UHGV virus genome: UHGV-0031053
DNA from: a virus
Length of the DNA: 54,577 nt
Direction: 5' to 3' (one strand)
The position numbers and the translations under genes were made by a program. Below are positions 7,179 through 31,600 of the stretch, piece by piece. How positions within the stretch are numbered: position 1 is the stretch's first letter; each line of letters begins with the position of its first letter. The notes beneath the pieces are model-generated. The model was not told the origin of the DNA, did no database searches, and worked only from the letters and a program-made list of their open reading frames with translations.

Positions 7179-7772
7179 ATGAGTAATTTATCAACTAATG
7201 CTTATTTAGCATTGCAACAATCAGAGTTTATATTTGGAACTAGAAATAATGCTAAGGATATTGAAATCCGTAATGCAGTTATATTATTTAGAAACTTAGC
7301 TGGCGCTGAGCGTGTAGGTAAGAGAAAGGATGGTTCTTCATTTAAGTCACGTGGAGCTGATTTTAAGGTTGCTATTTCCGAGGAAGTATATAAAACACTT
7401 GAAAAGATTGGTACTTTCTCTATTTCAGCTTTACCAGTTGAGTTGCCTGAGAGTGAGGAAACAACATTATATTTATTAAGAGTTAAGGTTACTATGGATT
7501 CTGAGTGGCCTCCAGTTATTAAATTATATACTAAAATGAATGGTAAGACATCTGTTAATCAATTGACTAAAGATAGTATTGAAACAGCTGATAGAGTTGA
7601 AATCGATAGAGCAGATATCATCATTCATCCAAGTGAGTATGATGATGGAAAGTTCTCAGTATATTTAAAGCAAATGAATATTTGTACTGTAGAGGCTCAA
7701 GATTTTGGTGGTTATTGGGATGAACTAATTGCTTCAGATGATGTTGAGACTAATCCATTTCCTCAGAACTAA
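7179..7772 (+). CDS. hypothetical protein (possible ssDNA-binding, DUF2815-like)
   Basis: Position between polymerase and helicase. Weak resemblance of the N-terminal region (VILFRNLAGAER...) to phage SSB-like proteins. Not verified. Confidence 0.3.
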   Translation: MSNLSTNAYLALQQSEFIFGTRNNAKDIEIRNAVILFRNLAGAERVGKRKDGSSFKSRGADFKVAISEEVYKTLEKIGTFSISALPVELPESEETTLYLLRVKVTMDSEWPPVIKLYTKMNGKTSVNQLTKDSIETADRVEIDRADIIIHPSEYDDGKFSVYLKQMNICTVEAQDFGGYWDELIASDDVETNPFPQN

Positions 7773-7782
7773 GAGGTTCTAA

Positions 7783-9033: not shown

Positions 9034-9391
9034 TGAAACAAAAACAATAACATGTACAAATAAAAAAGATGCATTTTTTCTAATAACGGCAATTGAGTAT
9101 TATTTGAATCCTCATTCAAAAATTATGTCACTTGCAACAGTTCGCGAACTACTTGAACAGCTCCCTGTTAAAGAGAATTTCGGTTTTAAAGAAAAGGGGC
9201 ATTTAATATTTAAATATAACATAGAAAAATCATTAATTATTCTTGATTTTAGTTATGAGTTATACGATGAAAAAATGAGTTATGTTTTAGAGGTGGGACC
9301 ATTTTGTGTTGAAGATGGTGGTTTAAGTGTAATGGATAACGACACTAGAATGTACGATGCCTTAAAACAAATAAAAAATATTAAAAACTAG
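9020..9391 (+). CDS. hypothetical protein
   Basis: ORF track frame 8966-9391. ATG 9020 follows AAGGAG (9004-9009) and avoids a long overlap with the helicase gene. Confidence 0.4.
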   Translation: MEFDDETKTITCTNKKDAFFLITAIEYYLNPHSKIMSLATVRELLEQLPVKENFGFKEKGHLIFKYNIEKSLIILDFSYELYDEKMSYVLEVGPFCVEDGGLSVMDNDTRMYDALKQIKNIKN

Positions 9392-9403
9392 GTGGTGTGA
9401 TTT

Positions 9404-9922
9404 ATGACAAAATTTGGAGTTAAGTTTTCTAATTTGATTATTAAAATTGGTGGTTTTATAGCTAGTAAGAAATGGCTATATTACTTGCTAAATTATACGT
9501 GGGGATTATTACCTACATTACTTGGATGGCTATTATATTTATGCTGTATGCCATTTGCGTTCTATAAAGACAAAAGATATGGTATGAGATATATTAGCTT
9601 TGATGCTCAGAGTGGATGGGGCTTTTCATTAGGCACTTCAATATTCATTAGTAATCGTATTTCTGAGTGTGTTATACCTCATGAAATAGGGCATACAATA
9701 CAGAATGCAATATTTGGACCTTTTCAAATTATATTGGTTGATATACCTAGTGCCATAAGATTCTGGTATAGAAAGATACTCGCTAAATGTGGAAAGAAGT
9801 TAATTAAAAAATACGATGACATTTGGTTTGAATCTTCCGCTACATCTTTAGGAGTAATTATTAGTATCACTTGGAAGAGAAACTGGTCAACAGACAGAAG
9901 AAAAGAAAAAGAAAAGAAATAA
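9404..9922 (+). CDS. integral membrane protein with HExxH motif (putative zincin-like metallopeptidase)
   Basis: Several hydrophobic helices. CVIPHEIGHTIQN contains HEIGH. Confidence 0.45.
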   Translation: MTKFGVKFSNLIIKIGGFIASKKWLYYLLNYTWGLLPTLLGWLLYLCCMPFAFYKDKRYGMRYISFDAQSGWGFSLGTSIFISNRISECVIPHEIGHTIQNAIFGPFQIILVDIPSAIRFWYRKILAKCGKKLIKKYDDIWFESSATSLGVIISITWKRNWSTDRRKEKEKK

Positions 9923-10128
9923 TTGGGGGTTCAGAATTTATTCATTTGGATAAGTCTGTTCCCGTTACATATAAGTGTTTGGTCTGTGGTGGAAAACGAA
10001 CACTACGTTTCAACTATAAGGATGCTACTACAGGACAATTATGGAGATACGTTAAGTATAAGGCTAGGATTCCTTATGGTGGAAAGATAAAATGTAATAA
10101 ATGCAATGGTCTAATGCAAATGGAGTGA
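9871..10128 (+). CDS. zinc-ribbon protein (CxxC...CxxC)
   Basis: ORF track (TTG start; true start uncertain, possibly downstream). CLVCGG...CNKCNG. Overlaps the end of the previous gene. Confidence 0.3.
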   Translation: MEEKLVNRQKKRKRKEIIGGSEFIHLDKSVPVTYKCLVCGGKRTLRFNYKDATTGQLWRYVKYKARIPYGGKIKCNKCNGLMQME

Positions 10129-13754: not shown

Positions 13755-14069
13755 ATGGCAAAAAATAAAATATATCGTGTTGAAGCTGAATATCAAAAGC
13801 ATTTGATAGAAGAAATTTATCATCGCATTGATGAAGTAACAATTCTAAAAAATGATTCTGGTTATCTACAAGGTATTCCAGATTTGTGTATCTTAGGACC
13901 ACGAGGAAAGGATGCTTTGTTAGAGGTCAAGCTTCACGAGAATTCACCACACAGACCAAACCAAGACTACTATATTCAGCGTGAATGTAAACGTGGAGGT
14001 TTTGCTAGATTTATATATCAAGAGAATGAAGAGGAAGTTCTTGGCGATTTGGTGAATTGGTTTAAGTAA
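13755..14069 (+). CDS. VRR-NUC domain nuclease
   Basis: GIPDLCILGPRGKDALLEVK matches the VRR-NUC PD...(E)xK signature. Confidence 0.7.
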   Translation: MAKNKIYRVEAEYQKHLIEEIYHRIDEVTILKNDSGYLQGIPDLCILGPRGKDALLEVKLHENSPHRPNQDYYIQRECKRGGFARFIYQENEEEVLGDLVNWFK

Positions 14070-14089
14070 TTGGAAAGGGGATTATATTT

Positions 14090-14728
14090 ATGAAGTGGAA
14101 TGACCACCATCAATTAGAAGGTAAACATGCCTTCTTAAGTGCTAGCAAATTTACTTGGCTTAATTGGGATCCAGAAACTTTGGAAATGAGATTCTATAGT
14201 CAATATCAACAAGAGATTGGAACTCTTATTCACGAGCTTGCTCACAGGCGTATTGTGTGTAGACGTAAAATTAATAAAAATGATGTCCATTTGATTGAAG
14301 ATGTCATGGACCAGAATTATATTCCAAGAGGAGCTTATGACCCAGCCAAAATATTGGAGAATTTAGTACCATTTATTAATGACGCTATTGGCTTTAGAAT
14401 GGATAGCGAAATCATTCTATATTACAACCAATATTGCTTTGGCACAACTGATGCAATCGTATATGATGAGAAGAATAAGATTCTTAGAATACACGATTAC
14501 AAGAATGGAGTTACTCCAGCACATATGGAGCAGTTATTAATCTATGCGGCATTATATTGTTTGGAATACAACAAAAATCCAAAAGATTTTGCTACTGAGC
14601 TTAGATTATATCAGTTGAGTGAAATTATTGTTCACCAACCAAAGCCAGAAGAGATATTAACAATTATAAATGTTATTAAGCAACAAACATTATGTATTTA
14701 TGGATTTGCAGGAGGCGACATTAGATAA
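14090..14728 (+). CDS. putative PD-(D/E)XK-family nuclease (Cas4/RecB-like fold?)
   Basis: GTTDAIVYDEKNKILRIHDYK fits hhhD...(D/E)xK. Also contains IHELAH, so a metalloenzyme alternative is not excluded. Confidence 0.35.
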   Translation: MKWNDHHQLEGKHAFLSASKFTWLNWDPETLEMRFYSQYQQEIGTLIHELAHRRIVCRRKINKNDVHLIEDVMDQNYIPRGAYDPAKILENLVPFINDAIGFRMDSEIILYYNQYCFGTTDAIVYDEKNKILRIHDYKNGVTPAHMEQLLIYAALYCLEYNKNPKDFATELRLYQLSEIIVHQPKPEEILTIINVIKQQTLCIYGFAGGDIR

Positions 14729-17700
14729 TGGAAGAAAATACTTTAAAGGCATCGGCCGAAGAAATGGAAATGTTCCACGATTTATTTAGTGGAGCCGAAG
14801 AACTAATTAATGAAATAAATGACGAAGATTATATTCAACATTATGGTATGCCAAGACGTTCTGGACGTTATCCTTGGGGCTCTGGTGATAATCCATATCA
14901 ACATTCAGGTGATTTCTTAGCTCGTAAGAATGAGTTAAAGAAATCTGGAATGAGCGAAAAAGAAATAGCTGATTATTTTAATATGTCAACTACACAGTAT
15001 AGAGCAGCTGTATCAATTGCAAATGCTGAGCGTAGATCATATCAAGTAGAAACAGCTAAATCATTAAAAGCTCATGGATATAATAATGTTGAAATTGCTA
15101 AAAAGATGGGATTACCCGGAGAATCATCAGTTAGGTCATTACTTAATTCAGATTCCGAATCAAGAATGAAAAAAGCAGAATCAACAGCGTCAAATTTAAA
15201 GAAATTAGTTGATGAACGAGGTATGATTGATGTCGGTATTGGTGCGGAGCGTCAATTAGGTATATCAAAAGAAAAAATGAACCAAGCACTTGAGATGCTA
15301 AAAATGGAAGGATATGAGGTTTATGGAAATAGAGTTCCACAAGCCACTAATCCCGGTAAATATACAACATTAAAAGTGCTTTGCCCTCCCGGAACTAAAC
15401 ATAGTGAAATTTATGACTATGATAAAATTAATTATATTAATGATTTAACATCAAGAGATGGCGGAGATACATTTGAACCAACATTCGTATATCCTAAATC
15501 ATTAGATTCAAATCGTTTAGCAATTAGATATGCTGAAGATGGTGGCGTAAATAAAGATGGCGTTATGGAAATACGTCGTGGAGTAAAGGATCTATCATTA
15601 GGTGAATCTAATTATTCACAAGTACGTATTTTAGTTGATGGTAAACGTTATTTAAAAGGTATGGCTGTGTATTCAGATGATCTTCCTGATGGTGTTGACA
15701 TTGTATTTAACACTAACAAGGGCAAGGATAAATCAAAAATGGAAGTTTTAAAGGAAATAAAAGAAGATTCCGAAAATCCATTTGGTTCTTCAGTAAGATC
15801 AACCTATTATATTGATGAAAATGGAGAAAGACAGCTATCATTAATAAACAAGCGTTCCGACGAAGGAGAATGGGGGAATTGGTCAGACCATTTGCCATCG
15901 CAGTTCTTAGCCAAGCAATCTTTAAGCCTTATTAAGAAGCAATTAAATTTAACAGCATCTGATAAGGAGGATGAATATGATGAAATATGTCGTCTTACTA
16001 ATCCAACAATTAAAAGAAATATGCTAGAAACGTTTGCTGATGATTGCGACTCTGCTGCAGTTCATTTACAAGCTGCTGCATTGCCAGGTCAAAAATATCA
16101 GGTTATATTACCATTGACATCAGTCAAAGATACCGAAGTATATGCACCAAATTTCAAAGATGGTACGCAAGTAGCACTTGTGCGATATCCACATGGTGGA
16201 ACATTTGAAATACCAATTCTTAAAGTAAATAATAAACTTGAAGAAGGCAAGAAAATGATGGGTACAAATCCAGCTGATGCTATTGGTATAAATAAAAATG
16301 TAGCAGATAGATTATCTGGTGCTGATTTTGATGGTGATACTGTAATGGTTATACCACTAAGTGATAAGGTAAAAATAACTTCTACTAAGCAACTAAAAGA
16401 ACTAGAAGGATTTGATACTAAATTAGCATATCAATATGATGACAAGGTAAAAGATGCTAATGGTAAAGAACATTACTATCGTGCTGGCAAAGAAATAAAA
16501 ATTATGAACAATACCCAAACAGAAATGGGTAAAATTTCAAATCTTATCACAGATATGACATTAAGAGGTGCTTCTACAGAAGAGTTAGCACGTGCTGTTA
16601 AACATTCAATGGTTGTTATTGATGCTGAAAAGCATAAATTAGATTATAAACAATCTGAAATAGACAATAATATTGACCAATTGAAACGTGATTATCAGGG
16701 GCGTGAAGACAGTACACGTTATGGTGGAGCTTCAACTTTAATTTCTAAAGCTAAGTCACCAATCATAATTAATGAAAGAAAAGATGGTGCTTTCTTTACA
16801 AAGGAAGGAAATCATCCAGCATCTGTGGTTGATGAAGATAAGAAAATATATGTAGATGATATTACTGGTGAAATACTAAAGCGTAATCAACTTAAGCCAG
16901 TTGTATATGTAAATCCGGAAACTGGTGAAAAAATGTATCATGATACAAATCGTACATTTAGACAAGCTGTTTATAAGGATTCTAATGGTAAAACTAGAAA
17001 ATCTACTGTTATTACAAAAGATGGAAAAGATTATTTCAAAGATGAGGATGGACAATATACTCAAGTTACAAATGAAATAATTAAGGTTAGAAAAGCAACT
17101 CAAGAATCTACAAAAATGGCTGAAACATCTAATGCAAGAACACTATCATCTGGTACCCCACAAGAGGAAGCATATGCAGAATATGCAAATAAAATGAAGG
17201 CTTTAGCCAATAGAGCAAGAAAAGAAGCATTAGTTACTAAGGATATTCCATATTCTCCAGCAGCTAAGGAAGCATATTCAGAAGAGGTTAAGACCCTTAA
17301 TGCTAAATTAAATATAGCCGAACTTAATGCACCTAAGGAAAGACAAGCTCAAACTATAGCAAATACAGCTATTCGAGCTCAAACGCAAGCAAATCCTAAG
17401 ATGACTAGTGAGGAGAAAAAGAAATTATCTCAAAGAGAAATAGCTAAAGCTAGAATTAAAGTAGGTGCGGGTAAGAAAAATATAGAAATAACACAAAAAG
17501 AGTGGGCAGCCATTCAAGCAGGTGCCATTTCTAAATCTCGCTTACAAAATATCATAAATAATTGTGATACAAAGACGCTGAGACAGTTAGCTACACCTAG
17601 AGATAAGGTATCTGTAAGTAGTTCTAAGATTGGTCGTATGAAGAGTATGGCTAATTGTGGATATACCAATGCAGAAATAGCAGAAGCCCTAGGATTATCA

Positions 17701-17739
17701 GCTTCTACTGTAGTTAAATATATTAATGGAAAGGAGTAA
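14728..17739 (+). CDS. single-chain RNA polymerase homologous to multisubunit RNAP beta/beta-prime (YonO-like), fused to HTH DNA-binding modules
   Basis: Beta-like DPBB: VDGKRYLKGMAVYS (nt 15634-15675) and LPDGVDIVFNTN (15688-15711), cf. GDKMAGRHGNKGVIS...GTPVDIVLNP. Beta-prime-like DPBB: VALVRYPHGG...FEIPIL...SGADFDGDTVMVIPLS (nt ~16180-16365), cf. VLLNRAPTLHRLG...NADFDGDQMAVHVPLS. HTH-like segments near the N-terminus (MSEKEIADYFNMSTTQYRAAVSIA; YNNVEIAKKMGLPGESSVRSLL) and at the C-terminus (GYTNAEIAEALGLSASTVVKYI, sigma region 4/LuxR-like). Confidence 0.75.
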   Translation: MEENTLKASAEEMEMFHDLFSGAEELINEINDEDYIQHYGMPRRSGRYPWGSGDNPYQHSGDFLARKNELKKSGMSEKEIADYFNMSTTQYRAAVSIANAERRSYQVETAKSLKAHGYNNVEIAKKMGLPGESSVRSLLNSDSESRMKKAESTASNLKKLVDERGMIDVGIGAERQLGISKEKMNQALEMLKMEGYEVYGNRVPQATNPGKYTTLKVLCPPGTKHSEIYDYDKINYINDLTSRDGGDTFEPTFVYPKSLDSNRLAIRYAEDGGVNKDGVMEIRRGVKDLSLGESNYSQVRILVDGKRYLKGMAVYSDDLPDGVDIVFNTNKGKDKSKMEVLKEIKEDSENPFGSSVRSTYYIDENGERQLSLINKRSDEGEWGNWSDHLPSQFLAKQSLSLIKKQLNLTASDKEDEYDEICRLTNPTIKRNMLETFADDCDSAAVHLQAAALPGQKYQVILPLTSVKDTEVYAPNFKDGTQVALVRYPHGGTFEIPILKVNNKLEEGKKMMGTNPADAIGINKNVADRLSGADFDGDTVMVIPLSDKVKITSTKQLKELEGFDTKLAYQYDDKVKDANGKEHYYRAGKEIKIMNNTQTEMGKISNLITDMTLRGASTEELARAVKHSMVVIDAEKHKLDYKQSEIDNNIDQLKRDYQGREDSTRYGGASTLISKAKSPIIINERKDGAFFTKEGNHPASVVDEDKKIYVDDITGEILKRNQLKPVVYVNPETGEKMYHDTNRTFRQAVYKDSNGKTRKSTVITKDGKDYFKDEDGQYTQVTNEIIKVRKATQESTKMAETSNARTLSSGTPQEEAYAEYANKMKALANRARKEALVTKDIPYSPAAKEAYSEEVKTLNAKLNIAELNAPKERQAQTIANTAIRAQTQANPKMTSEEKKKLSQREIAKARIKVGAGKKNIEITQKEWAAIQAGAISKSRLQNIINNCDTKTLRQLATPRDKVSVSSSKIGRMKSMANCGYTNAEIAEALGLSASTVVKYINGKE

Positions 17740-17745
17740 CAGTGT

Positions 17746-18000
17746 ATGAAAGAACTTAGAATAACAACGCAAGACAATCCATACAATCCATTCACACAAT
17801 GGGATGATTGGTACATGTTTGATTTGCAAAAAGGCTATCATACATGCGAACGTTTAGCTTCAGTAGCATACACTTCTGATGCACTTTCCGATGATGAGAA
17901 CCTTGAACAAGTTGAAAGAGCAGCTAACATGCTTCTTAAAACTGGTGCAATCAACAAAGAAGGCAAAATTGTTGAGTACAAAAAGGTTTATAGAGACTGA
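17746..18000 (+). CDS. hypothetical protein
   Basis: ORF track. RBS AAGGAG. Confidence 0.45.
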   Translation: MKELRITTQDNPYNPFTQWDDWYMFDLQKGYHTCERLASVAYTSDALSDDENLEQVERAANMLLKTGAINKEGKIVEYKKVYRD

Positions 18001-18041
18001 AATAAGCTCAAAAAGCAATAAAAAAGCTTAAAATGGCTTAA

Positions 18042-18120
18042 CCCCACCCCGGGGGAGGGTATCGCAAAAGACACCCCCTCCCCGTATCGGGTCGGTCCTA
18101 AAAAATTCCCCACGGGAAAA
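18042..18120. other. GC-rich structured island in AT-rich DNA (hairpin GGGGAGGG/CCCTCCCC), candidate cos/packaging site or structured RNA
   Basis: CCCCACCCCGGGGGAGGGTATCGCAAAAGACACCCCCTCCCCG, then a second imperfect palindrome AAAATTCCCCACGGGAAAATTTT. Lies directly upstream of terS, HNH and terL. Confidence 0.4.
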
Positions 18121-18315
18121 TTTTACCAAAAGTTTTTGATATTTTAGTGGACATTTAGTCGAGTATATGAGGCTCTTTTGCATAACCTCTTTCTTTGCAA
18201 TTTTTCCTCCCATGCTCTTCTCCTTTTCAGCATCTGGGAGTCCTTGTATACTCTGCTAAATGCCTACCTAAAGTGTTTTAAACTTATATTAAACTATATG
18301 GAAAAGGAGTATAAC

Positions 18316-18654
18316 ATGCCTACAAATAGAGCTAAAAACATAGGTTCTGGCGAATTGCCTCCAAAAAGACCAGCTCTTACACCAGAGGCACGTGAGAATC
18401 AAATGATATCCTTGGCTTTTGATGCTGCTGAACGTCAATTAAGGGATGGAACAGCATCTGCACAAGTCATAACTCATTTTCTAAAGCTCGCTACAGTTAG
18501 AGAGCAAAAGGAACTTGAAAAAATTGAATTAGAAAAGCAACTTCTTGAAGCTAAGAAGGGTGCAATTGAATCCGAACAGCATGCTTCAGAATTATTTGAT
18601 GAAGCTATTAAGGCTTTCAGTACATATTCTGGAGGAGGCAATAAAAGTGAATGA
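18316..18654 (+). CDS. terS: putative terminase small subunit
   Basis: ORF track frame 18178-18654. ATG 18316 sits 6 nt after AAGGAG. Small helical protein (EKIELEKQLLEAKK coiled coil) immediately upstream of HNH and TerL. Confidence 0.45.
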   Translation: MPTNRAKNIGSGELPPKRPALTPEARENQMISLAFDAAERQLRDGTASAQVITHFLKLATVREQKELEKIELEKQLLEAKKGAIESEQHASELFDEAIKAFSTYSGGGNKSE

Positions 18655-19081
18655 TATTAAACTACGAACATATAGTGAACTCAAAGAATTAAAGACATAT
18701 AAAGAGAGATTTAATTATTTGAAGATACATAATGCTGGTGTTGGTATCAGCACATTCGGATTTGATAGATATTTGAATCAGGATTTTTATAAATCAAAAG
18801 AATGGAAGCGAGTTCGTGATGAAGTAATAGTCCGTGACAATTGTTGCGACCTAGGCATTGAAGGTCGTGAGATATGCGGCAAGGTATATGTCCATCATAT
18901 GAACCCTTTAACGGTAGAGGACGTAAAATTTTCTACCGATTTTTTATTGAATCCTGAATACCTAATTTGTGTTTCACACGAAACGCACAACGCCATACAT
19001 TATGGCGATGATGCCATACTTGATAAGTATGAGTATAAAGAAAGAGAAAAAAATGACACTTGTCCTTGGAGGAAGAAATGA
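18647..19081 (+). CDS. HNH endonuclease
   Basis: ORF track frame 18545-19081. GTG 18647 sits 8 nt after GGAGGAGG. CCDLG...CGKVYVHHMNP...SHETHNAIHY is an HNH/Zn motif. The terS-HNH-terL arrangement is typical of cos-type packaging. Confidence 0.7.
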   Translation: MNDIKLRTYSELKELKTYKERFNYLKIHNAGVGISTFGFDRYLNQDFYKSKEWKRVRDEVIVRDNCCDLGIEGREICGKVYVHHMNPLTVEDVKFSTDFLLNPEYLICVSHETHNAIHYGDDAILDKYEYKEREKNDTCPWRKK

Positions 19082-19428
19082 AGAATTACGATGATTCAAT
19101 ATTGAATGATGTCAAGAAATCGTTAGGTATGACTCCAGAATATGATGCATTTGATAATGACTTGATTTTGCACATAAACACAGTGTTTTCAACCTATCGA
19201 CAAATGGGAATAGGTCCACAAGATGGTTTCTCAATACAAGATGAGAATGCTACATGGCAAGATTATCTAGGGGATAGATTAGCATTACTTGAACAAGTAA
19301 AAACATGCACTTGTTTAAAAGTAAGATTGCTATTTGATCCACCATCAAGTTCAGTTCACTTAGATTCTATGAACAAAATAATAGCTGAGCTTGAGTATAG
19401 AATGTATATAGAAGAAGGAGGTTACTAG
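19078..19428 (+). CDS. hypothetical protein (possible gp6-like head-tail connector/DNA-packaging protein)
   Basis: ORF track frame 19060-19428. ATG 19078 overlaps the HNH stop (ATGA). LNDVKKSLGMT...DNDLILHINTVFSTYRQ resembles the gp6-like connector N-terminal pattern. Confidence 0.3.
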   Translation: MKNYDDSILNDVKKSLGMTPEYDAFDNDLILHINTVFSTYRQMGIGPQDGFSIQDENATWQDYLGDRLALLEQVKTCTCLKVRLLFDPPSSSVHLDSMNKIIAELEYRMYIEEGGY

Positions 19429-19430
19429 TT

Positions 19431-19970
19431 ATGGATTTCTTTGGATTGAGTTATTTAATGCACCATGGCATAAAAGGTCAAAAATGGGGTGAAAGAAATT
19501 ATCAAAATTTGGATGGTTCTTTAACTGATGCTGGTAAAGCTCGCTATAGTAAATCATCAAATAAAGATAATGACAAGAACCAGAAGAATAGCAATACTAA
19601 TAAGCAAGATAAGAAAAACAATAACAAAAAGAAAGAATTCGATTATAAAGATGCTTCTGAAGTATTAAATAATACATCAAAAGTGTTTAAAGATAGTTCT
19701 AATTTATTAAAAACTGGTAACGGCAAATACATTAAAAAAGATTACTCAAATATTTCTGATGAAGAATTAAAGATGCGTATTCGTAGACTTGAAATGGAAA
19801 AGAAATATGGAGATTTAACTGGTGATACAAAATATATTCGTTCCGGTAGCGAAAAAATAAAAGATGTCATCGGTACTGTAGGTGCTATTGTTGGTATAGC
19901 TGGCACAACAGTTATGATAGCTCAAGGTATACATAATATGAAAAAATCAAAGTCTGGAGGTAAATCATAA
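19431..19970 (+). CDS. small protein with HHGIKGQKWG N-terminal motif, K/N-rich linker and C-terminal TM helix (motif family member 1)
   Basis: LMHHGIKGQKWGERNY. Hydrophobic segment VIGTVGAIVGIAGTTVMIAQGI. Confidence 0.5.
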   Translation: MDFFGLSYLMHHGIKGQKWGERNYQNLDGSLTDAGKARYSKSSNKDNDKNQKNSNTNKQDKKNNNKKKEFDYKDASEVLNNTSKVFKDSSNLLKTGNGKYIKKDYSNISDEELKMRIRRLEMEKKYGDLTGDTKYIRSGSEKIKDVIGTVGAIVGIAGTTVMIAQGIHNMKKSKSGGKS

Positions 19971-20410
19971 TGGACTATATTGATGTGCATGAGTTATACC
20001 ATTATGGAGTGCCGGGAATGAAATGGGGGCATCATAAAACTCCAAAAGTTATGGTATCTAATGGAAATCGAAGAAAAAATGGTCAACAGACAGAAGAAAA
20101 GAAGAAAGAAAAGAAACCATTTCTTTATAATAGAGCTGTTAAGACTAGTAAACAATTAGAAAAATTTTCTGAAAGAATACCGGGAATTAGAAAAATAGCT
20201 TATACAAAAGAACTTTCTAAAGACCAACATGCTACACGTGGTTATGCATTTATGGCGACTGTATTAGCAGCTGGAATCGCTACTAAGGTGACTATTGGTG
20301 CAATTCGTAAGCATAAAGGTATTACACCTATTACACCTCTAGAGACGAAAAAAAATGGAACAGTTGTTGATGCAGTTTTAAAAGATATTCCTAAAAAATC
20401 CAAAGCATAA
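19970..20410 (+). CDS. small protein with YHYGVPGMKWG N-terminal motif and TM helix (motif family member 2)
   Basis: LYHYGVPGMKWGHHKT. Hydrophobic segment YAFMATVLAAGIATKVTIGAI. ATG overlaps the upstream stop. Confidence 0.5.
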   Translation: MDYIDVHELYHYGVPGMKWGHHKTPKVMVSNGNRRKNGQQTEEKKKEKKPFLYNRAVKTSKQLEKFSERIPGIRKIAYTKELSKDQHATRGYAFMATVLAAGIATKVTIGAIRKHKGITPITPLETKKNGTVVDAVLKDIPKKSKA

Positions 20411-20461
20411 TAAATTGTTTCATTATTAAGAAATGTTTACTGAAAATGGTAATGGATTAAT

Positions 20462-22192
20462 ATGCTATCTAATACAGCAGTTCCCATTTATTATGGGCAA
20501 TTCAGAGATTCAGTCTTAAAAGGTGAATTACCTGTCTGTGCTACCATTTCAATGGAAATGAATCGCATAGATAAATTAATTGAAAATCCCGGTGTATTTT
20601 ATGATGATGAGGCTGTTAATGGCTTTATTTCATACTGCGAAAATGAATTAACACTGACTGATGGTTCGGATTTAAAAATGCTTGATTCATTCAAGCTATG
20701 GGCTGAACAAGTATTTGGTTGGTACTATTTCATAGAGCGAAGTGTCTTTGTACCTGATGAAGAAGGCATAGGTGGACACTATGAAAAACGCCTGATAAAG
20801 AAAAGATTAACGCAAAAGCAATTTTTAATAATACCGAGAGGTGCTGCAAAATCAATGTATGCATCTTTTATTCAAAGTTACTTTTTAAATATCGATACTA
20901 GTACTACTTATCAGGTATCAACTGCTCCTACAATGAAGCAGGCTGAAGAGGTAATGTCACCAATAAGAACCTCTATCACAAGGGCGAAAGGCCCTTTTTT
21001 TAAATTTCTAACAACTGCGAATACTCAAGGTAAAGTTAAGAAGAGAATGCTAGAATCCACCAAAAAGGGAATAGAAAACTTCTTAACAGGCTCATTACTT
21101 GAAATTAGACCTATGAGAATAGATAAACTGCAAGGTATGAGATGCAAAATAGCTACTATAGATGAGTGGCTTTCTGGAGATGTTCGAGAAGATGTAATTG
21201 GTGCAATCGAGCAAGGTGCTTCTAAATTAGACGATTGGCTAATTGTAGCAACTTCATCAGAAGGTACTGTTAGAAATGGTAGCGGTGACACAATTAAAAT
21301 GGAATTAATGTCAATTCTTAAAGGTGAATACATTAATCCACATGTATCTATTTGGTACTACAAATTAGATGCAATTGAAGAAGTTGGTAAACCTGAATTG
21401 TGGATTAAGGCTAATCCAAATTTAGGTAAAACTGTTTCATATGAAACATACCAATTGGATGTAGAGAGAGCCGAGAAGGCTCCGGCAACAAGAAATGATA
21501 TTTTGGCAAAAAGATTTAACCTTCCTATGGAGGGTTTTACATATTTCTTTGCTTATGAAGAAACAGAAGTACATCCTCATCGAGATTATTGGGGACTACC
21601 ATGCTCGTTGGGTGCAGACTTATCACAGGGTAATGACTTCTGTGCATTTGCATTTTTATTTCCATTAAATAATAGTCAATTCGGTATTAAAACATTGAGT
21701 TATATAAGTTCATTAACATTACACAAATTACCGCCAGCTCTTAGGGCTAAATATGATGAATTTATTAATGAAGGTACATTGATAGTCTTGGATGGAACAA
21801 TTCTTGATATGAATGATGTTTATGATGATTTAGATAATCATATAACAAGTCACGATTATGATGTACGTTGCTTAGGTTTCGACCCTTATAATGCAAAAGA
21901 GTTTGTCAATCGTTGGCAAACGGAAAACGGCCCATTTGGAATAGAAAAAGTATCTCAGGGGGTAAAAACGGAATCGGTACCACTTGGCGAATTGAAAAAC
22001 CTTGCAGAAGCAAGATTACTTTTATTTGATGAAAAAATAATGACTTTTACAATGGGTAATTGTATTGCTATTGAGGATACAAACGGCAATAGAAAATTAA
22101 ATAAGCAAAAAAGAGAAGCTAAAATTGATAATGTGGCAGCCTTACTGGATGCCTTTGTTGCATATAAAGCACATAAGGAGGCATTTGACTAA
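20462..22192 (+). CDS. terL: terminase large subunit
   Basis: Walker A-like IIPRGAAKSMYAS and Walker B KIATIDEW. C-terminal RNaseH-like nuclease region (CSLGADLSQGNDFCAFAF). 576 aa. Confidence 0.85.
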   Translation: MLSNTAVPIYYGQFRDSVLKGELPVCATISMEMNRIDKLIENPGVFYDDEAVNGFISYCENELTLTDGSDLKMLDSFKLWAEQVFGWYYFIERSVFVPDEEGIGGHYEKRLIKKRLTQKQFLIIPRGAAKSMYASFIQSYFLNIDTSTTYQVSTAPTMKQAEEVMSPIRTSITRAKGPFFKFLTTANTQGKVKKRMLESTKKGIENFLTGSLLEIRPMRIDKLQGMRCKIATIDEWLSGDVREDVIGAIEQGASKLDDWLIVATSSEGTVRNGSGDTIKMELMSILKGEYINPHVSIWYYKLDAIEEVGKPELWIKANPNLGKTVSYETYQLDVERAEKAPATRNDILAKRFNLPMEGFTYFFAYEETEVHPHRDYWGLPCSLGADLSQGNDFCAFAFLFPLNNSQFGIKTLSYISSLTLHKLPPALRAKYDEFINEGTLIVLDGTILDMNDVYDDLDNHITSHDYDVRCLGFDPYNAKEFVNRWQTENGPFGIEKVSQGVKTESVPLGELKNLAEARLLLFDEKIMTFTMGNCIAIEDTNGNRKLNKQKREAKIDNVAALLDAFVAYKAHKEAFD

Positions 22193-22717
22193 ATGGACTA
22201 TATTCAATTTAGTGAATTATACCATCATGGTATTAAAGGCCAATCTTGGGGTGACAAAAATGGCCCACCCTATCCTTTAGATTACGAAGACCATACAGCA
22301 GAGCAAAAAAAGAATAATCCTAAATCAACAATAGATGGTAAGTCTAGTACTAAAACTACAAGTAGTAAGACTAAGAAATCCACTTCAAATTCAACTAATT
22401 CTAATAAAAATAAAAAAATAGTTGAAAAAGAAAATGAAGCAAAAAAGAAGAAAATTCTTATTGGTGCAGGTGTGACTGCTGCTACTGTGGCTGCTGTTGC
22501 CGCTGTTGGTGTTGCTTGGTATAAAGGACAAAAAGTAGGTGCTACCAAGATGGAAACATTCTACAATAACAAAAATCATGAAAGAGTAGCAAAAGCAGCT
22601 GCTACGAGAAAAGTCAATGCGGTTAAACACGCCGGTCAAGTTAAAATTAATGGCTATGCTGATAAATTCGCAGCGATGAATTTTGATGGCGTTATTCGTA
22701 GAATGAACAAAGTATAA
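22193..22717 (+). CDS. small protein with YHHGIKGQSWG N-terminal motif, K/S/T-rich linker and TM helix (motif family member 3)
   Basis: LYHHGIKGQSWGDKNGPPY. Hydrophobic segment ILIGAGVTAATVAAVAAVGVAWY. ATG overlaps the terL stop. Confidence 0.5.
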   Translation: MDYIQFSELYHHGIKGQSWGDKNGPPYPLDYEDHTAEQKKNNPKSTIDGKSSTKTTSSKTKKSTSNSTNSNKNKKIVEKENEAKKKKILIGAGVTAATVAAVAAVGVAWYKGQKVGATKMETFYNNKNHERVAKAAATRKVNAVKHAGQVKINGYADKFAAMNFDGVIRRMNKV

Positions 22718-22752
22718 TCAGTATCTAATTTTATATCCGTGAGGTGATTGAT

Positions 22753-24030
22753 ATGAAAATATTAGATAGATTAGCCCATGCATGGAATGCATTCGTGGGC
22801 AATGAGTCAAACTGGCAAAAGTCATACAGTTATGGCTCATCCTATTCATATCGTCCTGACAGGGTCATAGTAAGTCGTGGTGCTGAACGTTCGATAGTAA
22901 ATTCAATATATAATAGAATTTCTGTAGATGTTGTATCAGTAAAAATACGACACGTATTATTAGATGATAATGATAGGTATGTTAGAGAAATTAATACATA
23001 CCTTAATAATTGCTTTAAAGTTGAAGCAAATATTGACCAATCTGCTCAACAGTTTTTATTGGATGCTGTAATGTCAATGCTTGACGAAGGTTGTGTGGCA
23101 TTAGTGCCAATAGACACAGCACTAAATCCAAATAATACAAGTTCATATGACATAGAAACATTACGTGTTGGTAAGATATTACAATGGTATCCGCAACACA
23201 TACAAGTTGAAGTATACAATGAAAGAATAGGTCGAAAGCAACAAATATTTATGCCTAAAAAAGACGTGGCAATAATAGAGAATCCGTTCTATTCGGTAAT
23301 GAATGCGCCGAATTCGACATTGCAAAGACTTATCAGAAAACTTGCTATTTTAGATGCTATTGATGAGCATAGTGGTAGCGAAAAATTGGATTTAATTATT
23401 CAATTGCCTTATATGGTTAAGACTGATGCTCGAAAGAAACAAGCAGAACAACGTAGATTGGATATCCAAGAGCAACTTGCCAATTCAAAGTATGGTATAG
23501 CTTATACAGATGGAACTGAACATATTACTCAATTAAATAGACCAGTTGAGAATAACATTCTTAAGTCCATTGAATATTTGACTAATATGCTATTCAGCCA
23601 ATTAGGTATCACTCAGTCAATCCTTGACGGAACTGCTGATGAAAAAACTATGCTTAACTATGAAAATAGAATAATTATACCTATAGTAAAAGCCATAGTC
23701 GACGAAATGAATCGTAAGTTCTTAACTAAAACTGCAAGAACAGAGAAACAAGCAATTATGTACTTTAATGATCCATTTAGGTATGTACAAATTACTAATC
23801 TTGCTGAAATAGCGGATAAGTTTACAAGAAATGAAATTATGACATCTAATGAATTACGTCAAGTCATCGGTATTAAACCATCTGATGACCCTAACGCAGA
23901 TGAATTAAGAAATAAAAATTTAAATAGTTCTGAAGCCGAGGCTCCTGCAACAGAAGAGCCAGTTGAAGAAGATGCACAAGAAGTTGAACAGCAAACAGTT
24001 AATCCTGAAGATGTTGTTCAGCTTTTTTAA
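22753..24030 (+). CDS. putative portal protein
   Basis: ORF track frame 22744 (GTG). ATG 22753 follows GAGGTGA. About 425 aa with acidic C-terminus, positioned between TerL and capsid. Confidence 0.5.
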   Translation: MKILDRLAHAWNAFVGNESNWQKSYSYGSSYSYRPDRVIVSRGAERSIVNSIYNRISVDVVSVKIRHVLLDDNDRYVREINTYLNNCFKVEANIDQSAQQFLLDAVMSMLDEGCVALVPIDTALNPNNTSSYDIETLRVGKILQWYPQHIQVEVYNERIGRKQQIFMPKKDVAIIENPFYSVMNAPNSTLQRLIRKLAILDAIDEHSGSEKLDLIIQLPYMVKTDARKKQAEQRRLDIQEQLANSKYGIAYTDGTEHITQLNRPVENNILKSIEYLTNMLFSQLGITQSILDGTADEKTMLNYENRIIIPIVKAIVDEMNRKFLTKTARTEKQAIMYFNDPFRYVQITNLAEIADKFTRNEIMTSNELRQVIGIKPSDDPNADELRNKNLNSSEAEAPATEEPVEEDAQEVEQQTVNPEDVVQLF

Positions 24031-24058: not shown

Positions 24059-25864
24059 ATGGCTAAAAAAAAATACGACTTTTGTGGTTGGGCAACCAAA
24101 TGCGGAGTCAAATGTGCTGACGGCAGAACAATTATGCCTGGTGCATTTGATGATAATAATGGTCAGACAGTTCCGCTAGTTTGGAACCATGACCACAAGT
24201 CAGCTGATAACGTATTAGGACACGCGTTATTGGAAACACGTGATAATGGCGTGTATGCGTATTGCAATTTTAATAATACTCCGCAAGGAGAAAACGCAAA
24301 GGAATTAGTTCGTAATGGCGACATTAAATCGCTATCAATATTTGCAAATAAGCTAAAGCAAAACAGCGGTGGAGAAGTATACCACGGCTATATTAGAGAA
24401 CTTAGCTTAGTGTTAGCTGGAGCAAATCCACAAGCATACATTGAAGAGATTAATATTCAGCATAGCGAAGGCTCTGATGAGTTTGAAGCTATCATCTATA
24501 CAGATGATGGTATGACTGAATTAACATTAAGCCATTCCGAAGAAGAAAAAGAGGGGGCGCTTGAACATATGGATGAAGAAAACAAGCAAAAAGAAAGTAA
24601 ACAGGAAGAAACCCAACAAGAATCAAGTGGCAAATCAATACAAGATATAATTGACACAATGAATGAAGAGCAAAAGACTGTATTGAATTACGTTGTTGGA
24701 CTTGCTGTAGAAGAAGGACAAAATGCAGACGATGAGGGGGATAATGAAATGAAACACAATGTATTTGACAATGAAGGAAATGTAATTGGTGGTGATGGTC
24801 AATACTTAAGCCACAGCGATTTAGAGCAAATCGTAGAAAACGCTAAGGCATGCGGCTCATTAAAGAAAGCATACCAAGAATATGCAAAGGATTTTGCATT
24901 ACAACATGGTATTACTAATGTTGAAAATTTAATGCCTGATTCAAAAGTATTACCTGGTCATCCTTTAACATTAAATGATGATACTGAATGGGTAAGCAAA
25001 GTTATTTCAAAGGTACATCACACACCATTTGCTAAAGTTAAGTCAAGATATTTCGATATTACAGGTGATGAAGCTAGAGCTCGTGGTTACGTTAAGGGCG
25101 ACCAAAAGATCGATGAAGTAATCACAGCATTACAAAGAGAAACTACACCTCAAACAGTTTATAAGCATCAATCAATGGATCGTGATGACATTATTGATAT
25201 TACTGACTTTGATGTTGTTGCTTATTTAAAGGCTGAAATGCAAGGTAAGCTTGACGAAGAATTAGCACGTGCATACTTAATCGGCGATGGACGTACTTTA
25301 TCTGATAAGTATAAGATTAAGCCTACTAACATCAGACCAATTTTAGGTGATGACCCTACATATTCAGTATCACTATACATTGATGCCGTTGATGGTGAAG
25401 ATGATGAAACTTTAGCAAAGAGATTCATGAAATTCGTTAAGAAGAATAGAAAGAATTATAAGGGTAAGGGTTCTCCAGACCTATTTACAACTGAAGATAT
25501 GCTAAGTTCAATTCTTTGCATTGAAGATAAGAATGGTAGAGTTATTTATGATACTGTTGAGCAAGCCGCAAGAGCAATGCGTGTAAACGACATCATCACA
25601 GTTCCACCTATGGAATTAGCTAAGAGAACAGCTGATGGTTGCGACTATAGCTGTATCGGTATTATGGTTAACTTAGCAGATTACAATGTTGGTATGAATG
25701 CTAAGGGAGATAAGGAGTTCTTCAACCAATTCGATATCGATTATAACAAAGAAAAGTACTTAATTGAAACTCGTCAATCTGGTGCATTAGTTGTTCCTAA
25801 GTCTGCTTTAACATTTGAGTTAAAGACTAAAAAAGCAACATCTTCTGACAATCATGAAAATTAA
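24059..25864 (+). CDS. prohead protease (HK97/U35-like) fused to scaffold-like acidic linker and major capsid protein
   Basis: N-terminal ~140 aa with LVWNHDH...IRELSLVLAGANPQA (U35 protease-like). Central D/E-rich segment. C-terminal ~300 aa capsid-like. 601 aa, in the capsid position. Confidence 0.55.
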   Translation: MAKKKYDFCGWATKCGVKCADGRTIMPGAFDDNNGQTVPLVWNHDHKSADNVLGHALLETRDNGVYAYCNFNNTPQGENAKELVRNGDIKSLSIFANKLKQNSGGEVYHGYIRELSLVLAGANPQAYIEEINIQHSEGSDEFEAIIYTDDGMTELTLSHSEEEKEGALEHMDEENKQKESKQEETQQESSGKSIQDIIDTMNEEQKTVLNYVVGLAVEEGQNADDEGDNEMKHNVFDNEGNVIGGDGQYLSHSDLEQIVENAKACGSLKKAYQEYAKDFALQHGITNVENLMPDSKVLPGHPLTLNDDTEWVSKVISKVHHTPFAKVKSRYFDITGDEARARGYVKGDQKIDEVITALQRETTPQTVYKHQSMDRDDIIDITDFDVVAYLKAEMQGKLDEELARAYLIGDGRTLSDKYKIKPTNIRPILGDDPTYSVSLYIDAVDGEDDETLAKRFMKFVKKNRKNYKGKGSPDLFTTEDMLSSILCIEDKNGRVIYDTVEQAARAMRVNDIITVPPMELAKRTADGCDYSCIGIMVNLADYNVGMNAKGDKEFFNQFDIDYNKEKYLIETRQSGALVVPKSALTFELKTKKATSSDNHEN

Positions 25865-28229: not shown

Positions 28230-28607
28230 ATGATTAAAATTAAAGTTAAAGGAAATTTTGACAAAGTAGATTCTTACTTTAAAAAATCTCGTAAAATATC
28301 AAAATTTAATAATATTCAAATAATTGCTGACAATTGTCTTGAAGCTCTTAAAAGAGCAACTCCTAAAGATACTGGCTTAACTGCAAAGTCATGGAACTAT
28401 GAAATAATAGAAGAAGGCAATGAAAAAAAGATAGCCTTCAATAATACAAATATTCAAAATGGAGTAAATATTGCTCTACTTTTGGAATACGGTCACGGTA
28501 CTCCTAGTGGGACTTGGGTAGAAGGAAAGGAATTCATTGCCCCAACTATTCAAAAGGCCTTACTAGATGCCATTGACCAAGCATGTAAGGAGATGAGAAG
28601 GTTATGA
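28230..28607 (+). CDS. hypothetical protein
   Basis: ORF track. RBS AAGGAGG. The stop overlaps the tape measure gene start. Confidence 0.4.
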   Translation: MIKIKVKGNFDKVDSYFKKSRKISKFNNIQIIADNCLEALKRATPKDTGLTAKSWNYEIIEEGNEKKIAFNNTNIQNGVNIALLLEYGHGTPSGTWVEGKEFIAPTIQKALLDAIDQACKEMRRL

Positions 28608-31600
28608 GTAGTAAATTGGTTGATGAACGTGTCGTTGAGATGACGTTTGACAACAAAAAATTTGAATCAGGTGTTAAACAAAGCATGTCTACGCTTGACA
28701 ACTTCAAAGAATCTCTAAATTTTAAAAGTGCTGCGGCAGCTATGAATGCTTCCTTAGCATCTATTACGGTTAAGCCACTTAGTTCAGCATTAGAAACGGG
28801 AAAGAAGTCATTCAGTTCTTTTGCTGATTATGTTGAATTTACAATTATAAATCGTCTAACTAATAAAATATTAGATCTTGGTGAGAAGACTACAAAAGCA
28901 TTAAGTATTGACCAAATTACAGCTGGTTGGAGTAAGTTAGAATCGGAAGCAAAGAGCTCAGGTACACTAGCTAATATCTATGAGGATATGGACTTCTCAG
29001 GAATTGAAGAGCAAATGAGTAAACTTAAGTGGTATTCAGATGCTACATCTTATTCATACACTACAATGATGGAAACATTACAACAATTTGCGTCAACTGG
29101 TATGGACATTGATAAGGCAGCTACTTCAATTATGGGTATTGCACAATGGGCAGGTCAAGCAGGTGTTGGAGCAACAGAAGCTTCAGCGGCAATGCAACGA
29201 CTTTCTCAGGCCATGATGCAAGATAAGGTTACTTGGCAACAATGGGAATCAATTAACCTAAAAGGAATGAATACTGAAGCTTTCCGTAAGCAGTTGATTG
29301 AAACTGCCAAAGAAATTGGCACAGTAACAGAAGATGCTTTGGGAAATTACTACGTAGCTGGAACTGATAAATTAATTGCAAATTTTGATGAAGCCGCACA
29401 AAAGTGGACTTGGTCTGGATTTAAGGATACAATGTCTGATGGTTGGTTCACAGGTTCAGTATTATCCGAAACATTATCGAAATATGCATCGTCACTAGAT
29501 GATATTTACAATTTAGTTCAAGATGACAGTAATGGCATTGATACAACTCAACAAGCCATCGACGCCTTTAATAAATCGCTTGAAGAAAATGAAATGGGCT
29601 TAACTGAAGAGGATAAGCAATTGCATAAGATGTCTTCATCTGCATTAGAGGCAGCCTCAGAGTGTAGAACATTAACAGATGCTCTTAATGCTGCTAAAGA
29701 TGCTGTGGCTACAGGTTGGATGAATATCTATGGAGCTATATTTGGTAATTATGAAGAGGCTAAACAAGTATGGAATGGACTATATGAAAAGCTAATTTAT
29801 CCAATATTTATTCAAAGTGTTAAGAATCTTGAGGATGTATTCAAGACTTGGAATGAACTTGGCGGACGTTCTAGCTTATTTAATATGGATGAGAATAATG
29901 GTCCCATTGGTGCTTTATGGAATATAGTAGGAGCAGTAAATGATGTTATTGATGTCGTTAAGTCTGCATTCAAGACGGTATTCCCATTCTTTGAAGCATT
30001 CGATGGTAATAAATTGCTTGAGTTTACTAAGTCGTTACAAACATCTACTGCTAAGTTAAGGCTTAATGAGCAATCGGCAGAAAGACTTGGCAACATATTA
30101 AAAGGACTACTATCAGTTATCAAATTAATTGGAAAAGCTATTAAAGCAGCTTGGACTGCAATTGGCCCAATTATAAATTTAGCCAAATCATTTGCCGGTG
30201 CATTTGTTGAAATGCTAAGTGGTATCGGAAAGAATGTAACCGATTTTGCTAATTCTTTCGAAGGATTTGCAAAGGTTGCTAGCATTATTTCAAATAAATT
30301 ACGTGAACTTATTGACTATGTAAGTAAACTTGAAATAATAGTTAAAATTAAAGATAAATTTAATAGTTTTATAGAGCAACTAAAATCCGGTTTCAAACTA
30401 TCCGAAAAAGGTCAAAAAATATTAGAAGGATTTAAAAGCCTTGGACAAATACTTATACAATTATTAAAATCAATTGTTGGAGTGATTGCAAAAATTGTTA
30501 TTCCGGCGATAGGTTTACTTGTAAGCAAATTAGTTTCATTGGCATCTAAAATTGGACCTACTTTAATTAATTTCTTAGCTAAAATTTCAGAGAAGCTAAC
30601 ACAATTTGCAAATTATTTGAAAGAAAATAATCTAATTCAAAATGGGGCACAAAAATTTGTAGATTTCTTTAAAAAGATTCCAAAAGTATTGAGTCCAGTT
30701 TGGAATTTTATAAAGTCTTTCTTTTCTAATATCATCAATGCATTTAAATCATTCGGTGATTTCGTTTCAGGGAAGACTGGTAAAAATATTGGTGATATTT
30801 TCTTAGGAATTTTCAATTCAATTTCTGGTGCAGTTAAAAAGATTGCTTCTGCAATAGCATCTTTCGCTCATATTAATACAAAACCAGTTGAAGATTTCTC
30901 AAATGATGTTGAGAAGAAAACATCACCACTTAAATCATTATTTGATGGTTTAAAATCATTCCTTAATGGTATTTGGTCCGTAGTTAAGGCCGTCGTTCCA
31001 GTAATAGGAAAAATACTTAATAAGATTGGTGATTTATTAAGGGCATTAGCCGGCACTATTAATAACGTATTCAACAATCCGGATAGTCAAGGTATGTCAC
31101 TCACTCAAATACTTACTTCTGGTTTGATTGTAGCAGTTATTGCTAAAATTGCATCAAGTATCTATAATTTAACATTTGCAATTTCAGCATTAATTAAACC
31201 AATTGCAAACTTAATGTCATCGATTCAAGGTGTTATTGATGCTCAAAGTGCAAAGATGTATGCTGAGGCATTCAATACACTTACAAAATCAATAATTATT
31301 ATTGTAGCTGCACTAGTAGTATTATCATTAATTGATACTAAAAAGTTATTAGCAGCTGCTGGAGTGCTAACAGTATTAATTGGCGTTCTCGGTGTTGTTT
31401 TCTATTCACTAACAAAACTATCTTCAATGATAATAGTTGGTAGTAAGACAGCGGCAAGAGCATCTAAAAATATTTCATTATTTAAGTCGAGAATTTCTAA
31501 GACAATAGACGATTTCTCAACTGCGATGTCACAAACTTTAAGAATTGCAGCTATAGGTTCGGCAGTTAAAGAACTTTCCGTAGCACTATTAATTTTAGTA

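Follow-up and report, generated by a model that had tools for sequence, protein, structure and literature searches.

The 54,577-nucleotide viral genome UHGV-0031053 (the window, i.e. the whole stretch of DNA analysed) encodes three small proteins on either side of the gene for the terminase large subunit (terL), which share a short N-terminal peptide, and a single-chain RNA polymerase (RNAP) that bears a longer variant of this peptide near its own N-terminus. The peptide of the small proteins is, by profile matching, Pfam PF23847 (DUF7211), a family of 25 positions without assigned function. The reading developed below, to which an even chance is given, is that DUF7211 would be a linear encapsidation and ejection tag, implying a two-barrel RNA polymerase carried in the virion. 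The genes and features of the locus are as follows, where ORF denotes an open reading frame, AF2 a model by AlphaFold2 and HMM a hidden Markov model.

14728-17739, + strand: predicted two-barrel RNA polymerase, 1003 residues (phrog_4291, AF2 fold)
14833-14889, + strand: long motif variant, polymerase residues 36-54, IQHYGMPRRSGRYPWGSGD (conservation, hhalign)
19431-19970, + strand: core DUF7211 protein, 179 residues (full-length homologues, tail cluster 0)
19455-19547, + strand: DUF7211 motif of ORF 19431-19970, residues 9-39, LMHHGIKGQKWGERNYQNLDGSLTDAGKARY (regular expression, Pfam, custom HMM, alignment)
19746-19817, + strand: second conserved motif of the core family, residues 106-129, SNISDEELKMRIRRLEMEKKYGDL (alignment of 62 homologues)
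19866-19922, + strand: hydrophobic, G/A-rich C-terminal helix of ORF 19431-19970, residues 146-164 (Kyte-Doolittle 19-residue mean 2.02)
19970-20410, + strand: second DUF7211 protein, 146 residues, orphan tail (Pfam 31.5 bits; singleton in tail clustering)
19994-20029, + strand: motif of ORF 19970-20410, LYHYGVPGMKWG (Pfam DUF7211)
20249-20305, + strand: hydrophobic segment of ORF 19970-20410, residues 94-112 (Kyte-Doolittle mean 1.72)
20462-22192, + strand: terminase large subunit, terL (TerL_nuclease 5e-39, phrog_9 2e-107)
22193-22717, + strand: third DUF7211 protein, 174 residues, orphan tail, between terL and portal (custom HMM 59 bits; singleton)
22217-22252, + strand: motif of ORF 22193-22717, LYHHGIKGQSWG (custom HMM)
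22454-22510, + strand: hydrophobic segment of ORF 22193-22717, residues 88-106 (Kyte-Doolittle mean 2.08)

A regular-expression scan of all six frames with the strict pattern H[HY]G[IVM].G..WG returned exactly three matches (19461-19490, 20000-20029 and 22223-22252), all on the + strand and all corresponding to residues 11-20 of the three small ORFs; about 5e-5 matches were expected analytically, and none was obtained in 300 amino-acid shuffles. The looser pattern [HY][HYF]G.{3,12}WG recovered the same three sites together with one in the RNA polymerase (14839-14880, HYGMPRRSGRYPWG) and no others, i.e. four observed vs 0.12 expected. The initial annotation had assigned a single motif to the polymerase and the three small genes; this holds for the small genes under the strict pattern, but the polymerase peptide contains four extra residues, placed between its HYG and WG halves. 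All three small ORFs are preceded by a GGAGG-type ribosome-binding site. The third positions of their motif codons are alike at only 4-7 of 14, suggesting that the peptide has been kept by selection and not by recent duplication, and a tail-only BLASTP comparison among the three proteins detected no similarity outside the motif. The K/N/S-rich stretch and the single hydrophobic segment first reported for each of them were recovered (Kyte-Doolittle means 1.72-2.08), but the hydrophobic helix does not extend to the family as a whole, as evident from its presence in only 67 of 262 motif proteins at the threshold used.

The motif, initially described as belonging to no named domain, is recognised by the Pfam DUF7211 profile in ORF 19970-20410 at 31.5 bits, above the curated cut-off of 27 bits. 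ORF 19431-19970 scores 22.7 bits, below that cut-off, and its full-length homologues are annotated as DUF7211, as are most relatives; Pfam DUF7211 gave no match to ORF 22193-22717 or to the polymerase. A custom HMM of the motif scored 67, 54 and 59 bits on the ORFs starting at 19431, 19970 and 22193, respectively. The fuller consensus obtained from relatives reads ELYHhGhKGMKWGVRRYQNxDGSLTxAGKxRY, in which H, G, G, W and G are invariant. A profile search of 1.84 billion representative proteins retrieved 37,263 at E<=1e-3 and 22,340 at E<=1e-10. Scans of motif proteins against NCBIfam and PADLOC returned nothing meaningful, a sequence search of the PDB matched neither the polymerase nor the motif profile, no MuF or Phage_Mu_F domain was matched in the 208 motif proteins scanned, and DUF7211 is not mentioned in the literature searched. 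WXG100 and type VII secretion system (T7SS) signals, the KxYKxGKxW signal-peptide motif, choline-binding or WG repeats and AT-hooks were considered and rejected, as the spacing of the conserved residues differs from that of those motifs.

The product of 14728-17739 matches phrog_4291 ('RNA-dependent RNA polymerase'; E reported as 0). Its match to Pfam RdRP, at 4e-5, falls short of the cut-off of that family. It bears N- and C-terminal helix-turn-helix domains, and its GADFDGD catalytic loop (residues 531-537) is invariant in 56 homologues. Its AF2 model has a mean predicted local distance difference test (pLDDT) of 77, and the best Foldseek matches in the PDB are RDR2 of maize and Arabidopsis and QDE-1 of Neurospora (probability 1.00, E about 1e-4), followed by the beta' subunits of multisubunit RNAPs. 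On the strength of these matches of the model, the protein is a single-chain two-barrel (double-psi beta-barrel) RNA polymerase. The same two-barrel view was reached by HHpred in an earlier preprint devoted to the lineage, which calls the polymerase gene a signature of the lineage and does not discuss the polymerase N-terminus or virions (10.1101/842583).

The N-terminal peptide of the polymerase is itself strongly conserved. Residues H38, Y39, G40, P42, S45, G46, R47, Y48, P49, W50, G51, S52 and G53 are conserved in at least 90% of the 56 homologues, giving the consensus hxHYG[MTVI]x[RK]xSGRYP[WY]GSG, and SGRYPxG lies within the first 130 residues of 53 of the 57 polymerases of at least 700 residues in the fetched loci, in phages of Firmicutes and Actinobacteria alike. 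When the short motif was aligned by hhalign with 16 polymerase N-termini, a probability of 79% and an E of 1.5e-5 were recorded over 21 columns, across the four-residue insertion. On this profile alignment, the polymerase variant and the short motif are probably related.

Residues 22-61 of the polymerase, which span the peptide, have pLDDT values below 50, without secondary structure and with no packing predicted against the body; the latter is modelled with confidence from residue 62 onwards. In the model of ORF 19431-19970 the pLDDT is 47-49 over residues 1-20 and the remainder consists of low-confidence helices; with a mean pLDDT of 56 this model was too poor for a fold search. As the motif segment is predicted to be disordered in both models, a linear motif rather than a domain is suggested, i.e. 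a disordered peptide that would become ordered only on a partner.

The core family, represented by ORF 19431-19970, has 566 full-length homologues at E<=1e-3. Their alignment shows, in order, the motif, a variable linker, the block MSDxELxxRVNRLxLExxYxxLxGDxxYVxxGxEK and the G/A-rich hydrophobic C-terminal helix, whose position is conserved across the family. In the 62 aligned homologues E112, L113, R119, E123 and Y126 are invariant or nearly so, and the second block is also present in gp69 of Faecalibacterium phage FP_oengus and gp015 of Rhodococcus phage ReqiPoco6. When the motif was removed and the remaining tails were clustered, tail cluster 0, to which ORF 19431-19970 belongs, was the largest (136 members) and occurred in 86 of the 105 loci that have connector, TerL and portal; it is the only tail family of wide conservation.

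The genes that define the position of the motif genes, and two conserved neighbours, lie on the same strand.

17746-18000, + strand: small conserved protein, phrog_4303 (lineage-wide, no assigned function)
18298-18654, + strand: small conserved protein, phrog_4259 (lineage-wide, no assigned function)
19060-19428, + strand: head-tail connector, Phage_connect_2 (PF24829, 6e-33), the upstream limit of the first motif-gene slot
22744-24030, + strand: portal (Phage_portal 6e-15)
24059-25864, + strand: prohead protease-major capsid protein fusion, 601 residues (homologues annotated 'major capsid and protease fusion protein')

The protease and capsid halves of the last are joined by an acidic linker (EEEKEGALEHMDEENKQKESKQEETQQE). 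The polymerase gene adjoins this packaging module on the same strand, an arrangement that would fit the late expression needed by a virion enzyme. The genes of phrog_4303 and phrog_4259 lie between the polymerase gene and an HNH endonuclease gene (+ strand) upstream of the connector; in ReqiPoco6 the cos end directly follows the phrog_4303 homologue. Since no small terminase subunit is annotated in the window, the phrog_4259 protein is a candidate for it.

Taken as a whole, the window has the appearance of a complete genome (about 54.5 kb) of a temperate phage. Its only long minus-strand gene encodes a tyrosine integrase (46550-47764; phrog_1, E 3.5e-38), and ordinary siphophage tail genes include a tape measure protein (28604-34069, 1821 residues) and a tail protein (34785-38219, 1144 residues), one portion of which has a match to a phrog with the description 'tail protein with peptidase activity'. 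Three phrog_2152 paralogues without assigned function lie near the left edge (1024-2046) and, adjacent to each other, at the right edge (52954-53796 and 53780-54544). Identical proteins are present on a 54,906-bp metagenome contig from the human gut (Hadza). A nucleotide search of 14000-24000 against the phage collection returned nothing, and relatives are visible only at the protein level.

The architecture of the motif proteins was taken from six-frame ORFs of the fetched loci because a motif search of a 5.8-billion-protein database gave only proteins of 37-74 residues among the best 120 matches listed, which was judged an artefact of candidate collection. The sample comprised 465 motif ORFs from 164 related loci, with 432 genes in loci containing a TerL homologue. 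The motif starts within 15 residues of the N-terminus in 371 of the 465 ORFs and within 30 in 440. Of the 432 placeable genes, the interval from terL to portal holds 209 and that from connector to terL 155; another 43 are no more than 2 kb from terL, on contigs that do not reach the second marker. The placement beside terL, as initially remarked for the window, is also that of the relatives: 94% of these genes are directly beside terL, and all 242 motif genes in the first 93 loci are on its strand.

There are 1-7 motif genes per genome, and their tails without the motif fall into 183 clusters, 142 of them singletons, among which are those of ORFs 19970-20410 and 22193-22717. Several tails carry recognisable cargo. 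A Gln_amidase/papain-fold toxin 1 domain follows the tag in six gut loci and in gp8 of Arthrobacter phage Sporto (5302-6366 of locus L170), a cargo common to Clostridia phages and actinophages; since Sporto also carries a separate lysin A, its tagged 'amidase' is probably not the endolysin. Further cargo comprises GNAT acetyltransferases, P-loop NTPases, PG_binding_1 and CW_7 repeats. In ReqiPoco6 gp015 (14111-15727) a LigT-like 2H phosphoesterase with two HxT motifs is N-terminal to the motif and a core-family tail, which makes this one of the few proteins with an internal motif (residue 345 of 538). Proteins with 2-5 motif copies resemble tandem genes fused by read-through; the second unit of one such protein retains its own start sequence. 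Stumps of 40-80 residues make up about 5% of the motif ORFs, which suggests rapid gene turnover. Judged from these sequences, the pattern of the motif genes is that of a constant address on rapidly exchanged cargo.

Two further occurrences were recorded among the loci. The 62-residue stand-alone DUF7211 stump P0120 (8001-8189 in loci L010-L013) lies in the early/replication region of polymerase-encoding phages, far from terL, and is present on contigs in 128 index blocks. A cluster beside a bacterial spoIIIA operon (4232-9956 of locus L014) contains an Acb2/Tad1-like hairpin protein, connector, TerL, two DUF7211 genes, GH25 lysin and holin, with neither a portal nor a capsid gene, and is possibly a decayed prophage or an element of the satellite kind.

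The motif is a hallmark of one siphophage lineage, which includes Lactococcus phage 1706, Faecalibacterium phage FP_oengus, gut Clostridia prophages and about 220 actinophages. When 50,697 phage records were searched, the motif was present in 239, all confined to this lineage, and the polymerase, portal and capsid fusion were present in 251, 266 and 244 records, respectively. Genus counts are the same for all four (Arthrobacter 95, Gordonia 55, Streptomyces 54, Curtobacterium 7, Microbacterium 4, Rhodococcus 4 and Faecalibacterium 2), with most of the remaining records belonging to the Lactococcus 1706 group and to gut metagenome phages. The only outgroup seen consists of 21 Streptococcus phages whose portal is distantly related (24-26% identity among the matches listed), and no Streptococcus phage appears in the genus tallies of the polymerase or the motif among the matches listed. 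Bacterial genomes with the motif are mainly those of gut Clostridia; in their motif-bearing loci of at least 15 kb, the same TerL type is found in 42 of 42, portal and capsid fusion in 41 and a polymerase within 10 kb in 31. Identity to the actinophage proteins is 50-62% for the portal and 36-51% for the polymerase; the capsid fusion reaches 33-54%, or 33-46% where the match is full-length. Of the lineage proteins compared across phyla, the portal is the one with the highest conservation. Phyletic profiles of the portal and the capsid fusion, tried as a means of singling out a partner of the tag, had the same distribution as the motif and the polymerase and gave no discrimination.

An indication of virion association comes from Lactococcus phage 1706, in whose GenBank record the depositors labelled 11 of 76 ORFs (6, 7, 11, 12, 13, 17, 20, 21, 62, 71 and 75) as 'structural protein', nearly all others being of 'unknown' or 'putative' function. 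Only two motif-bearing proteins were found in this phage, and both carry the label. ORF7, located between connector and terL, has two copies of the motif (LQHRGVIGMRWG and LLHKGVKGMKWG) and no hydrophobic helix, and ORF75 is the polymerase homologue with the long variant. The connector homologue, ORF6, is labelled structural as well. Such labels from the phage 1706 laboratory presumably reflect sodium dodecyl sulphate-polyacrylamide gel electrophoresis and liquid chromatography-tandem mass spectrometry of purified virions; the association is taken here from the annotation. The 'structural protein' annotation of ReqiPoco6 gp106 was made by similarity to phage 1706 ORF75, and the Arthrobacter phage paper contains no proteomics.

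The suggestion made initially, that the peptide is a capsid-targeting tag and that the RNAP could be packaged and injected, is the best fit to the N-terminal position, the predicted disorder, the 183 tail clusters, the two slots beside terL and the phage 1706 labels, on evidence that is indirect throughout. Under this reading we infer a binding partner, loading into the procapsid, possibly a cleavage, ejection, and early transcription by the injected polymerase. The tag would dock on a conserved procapsid component. Being the most conserved lineage protein compared, the portal would suit as the partner of so invariant a peptide and is the first candidate, with the protease-capsid fusion as the second candidate partner and a possible processing enzyme. 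The tagged proteins would be taken up by the head ahead of DNA packaging and would pass into the host along with the DNA; in the window the tagged set would number four, namely the core protein (19431-19970), the two orphans (19970-20410 and 22193-22717) and the polymerase. The orphans, with their hydrophobic helix, may insert into the host membrane on ejection, while the polymerase, as a virion enzyme, would be capable of transcribing the phage DNA upon entry. Enzymatic cargo could serve as take-over or anti-defence effectors, and cell-wall-binding cargo could act locally during entry. A wider claim, that a peptide of about 13-30 residues is a portable load-into-head-and-inject code of a siphophage lineage spanning Bacillota and Actinomycetota, sufficient for packaging any protein from 15-kDa membrane proteins and toxin-like enzymes to a 115-kDa two-barrel polymerase, is put forward tentatively, its chances lying on the short side of even.

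Several observations weigh against an encapsidation tag. The short-motif HMM reaches the polymerases at an E of only 0.1-9, so that the sequence link between the polymerase variant and the short motif is of moderate strength. Co-occurrence cannot pick a partner, because every hallmark gene of the lineage shares one distribution. The virion evidence from phage 1706 consists of the record annotation, whose label set includes the small early-region ORFs 62 and 71, without the motif, and may contain contaminants. Some motif stumps lie in early regions. Cell-wall-binding cargo also fits an envelope or lysis role, as do the lysis genes that some relatives have in the vicinity of terL (PMC5513430). 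For YonO, a related enzyme, transcription of late genes is reported (PMC5467207), a precedent that makes a non-virion role of the polymerase plausible, the more so as the present phage encodes an integrase.

The alternative that survives best, held to be unlikely, is that the motif docks on a conserved partner outside the capsid, either the polymerase itself or a host factor, and that the tagged proteins act unpackaged in the producing cell; with the polymerase as partner, the small proteins would be its regulators, its membrane anchors or competitors of its own N-terminus. This would agree with the perfect co-occurrence of motif and polymerase at the genus level, but co-occurrence with portal and capsid is equally perfect. 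A disordered linear peptide is also what such docking would use, and YonO sets the example of a non-virion enzyme transcribing late genes, the polymerase gene here being located just upstream of the late module. However, the polymerase has its own copy of the peptide in cis with no predicted contact with its body, motif genes occupy the interval from terL to portal rather than the neighbourhood of the polymerase gene, and both motif proteins of phage 1706 are labelled structural. The initial annotation had offered RNAP subunits or anchors as its second reading of the small proteins; nothing specific was found in its favour, and it agrees poorly with toxin, GNAT, phosphoesterase and cell-wall-binding cargo on the same tag, which has no obvious reason to bind a polymerase.

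A role of the DUF7211 proteins as envelope or lysis accessories (holin- or antiholin-like, or targeted to the cell wall), with the polymerase resemblance being convergent or irrelevant, is considered very unlikely. The hydrophobic helices of the three window proteins, the PG_binding_1, CW_7 or papain-fold 'amidase' cargo of some relatives and the endolysin or holin genes upstream of terL in several relatives (PMC5513430) are in line with it. Yet the helix is restricted to the minority of family members counted above, a separate lysin A is encoded as well by the phages that have a tagged 'amidase', and motif genes are not beside the lysis genes in the window or in phage 1706, whose ORF7 is labelled structural and lacks the helix. 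The matching conserved peptide on 53 of 57 polymerase homologues would also be left unexplained.

To a similar degree improbable is a role in head assembly or packaging, in which the motif proteins would be scaffold-like accessories or substitutes for the small terminase and not delivered cargo. Motif genes do adjoin terL and portal, and the core family (about 180 residues, with a basic N-terminus and a predicted helical middle) loosely resembles small terminase subunits or scaffolds; the lack of an annotated small subunit in the window can be added to this, together with the conserved phrog_4259 protein, which has no assigned function. Unlike a scaffold or small terminase, however, the motif proteins are hypervariable paralogues, of which each genome has 2-7, and some end in a toxin or enzyme domain; a small terminase role was rejected on account of this copy number, the hypervariability and the enzymatic tails. 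Moreover, the acidic linker already joins the capsid protein to its protease, and the presence of the same motif on a 115-kDa polymerase is not explained. The probability that the resemblance is a chance or low-complexity by-product is negligible: low-complexity linkers are present in these proteins, but this is already refuted by the three sites found vs about 5e-5 expected, the 37,263 representative proteins at E<=1e-3 and the conservation across two bacterial phyla.

If the encapsidation tag is true, virion-carried RNA polymerases would also occur, beyond the N4-like and crAss-like podophages, in a large siphophage lineage to which hundreds of cultured phages (Arthrobacter, Gordonia, Streptomyces, Lactococcus) and numerous prophages of gut Clostridia belong. 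Siphophages that are common in the gut and in soil would in that case carry a transcription enzyme of their own, together with swappable effectors, into Gram-positive cells. The two hypervariable slots beside terL would be an arsenal of injected effectors (papain-fold deamidase-like toxins, acetyltransferases, 2H phosphoesterase, NTPases), some of which could be anti-defence proteins, and the peptide, being short and transferable, would offer a means of getting foreign proteins into phage heads and so of delivering them to Gram-positive bacteria.

Among known systems, the capsid targeting sequence (CTS) of phage T4 is N-terminal on the internal proteins IPI-III and on Alt, binds the scaffolding core and is cut by gp21 at L/I-x-E. 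The likeness lies in a short N-terminal peptide on otherwise unrelated proteins, which in T4 directs them into the prohead for injection with the DNA; here the peptide likewise starts within 30 residues in 440 of 465 ORFs and is followed by 183 clusters of tails. The CTS has no sequence similarity to DUF7211, and the present phage differs in being a siphovirus with a capsid protein fused to its protease and in a tag that is also found in fused tandem copies. MuF-domain polymorphic toxins of temperate Firmicutes phages, reportedly described by Jamet et al. in 2017, similarly combine a conserved head-associated N-terminal module with variable C-terminal toxins encoded beside the portal, whereas the MuF domain is folded and a few hundred residues long and DUF7211 is a predicted disordered peptide of 25-30.

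The virion RNA polymerase (vRNAP) of N4 and gp66 of crAss-like phages are RNA polymerases carried in the virions of podovirus-like phages, gp66 being a two-barrel enzyme of the QDE-1/RDR type. Neither is known to have an N-terminal tag in common with other cargo. The two-barrel QDE-1/RDR fold of gp66 is also that found for the present polymerase, but those phages are podovirus-like, whereas here the packaging is proposed on indirect grounds and the phage is temperate, with an integrase. Relatives of these two-barrel polymerases have been discussed previously (bioRxiv 10.1101/842583; PMC7481178). YonO of the Bacillus prophage SPbeta is closer in setting, as a single-chain two-barrel DNA-dependent RNA polymerase of a temperate siphophage of a Gram-positive host, and the paper on it reports late-gene transcription and does not mention virions (PMC5467207). 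YonO was too distant to be found by tblastn with the present polymerase, and no paper linking the YonO-like polymerases of this lineage to virions was found in the literature searched. The motif as a tag, its variant on a two-barrel polymerase and its confinement to two slots beside terL across two phyla appear undescribed in that literature, while the principle of an encapsidation tag is known from the T4 CTS, from MuF-toxin fusions and from the virion polymerases of N4 and crAss-like phages.

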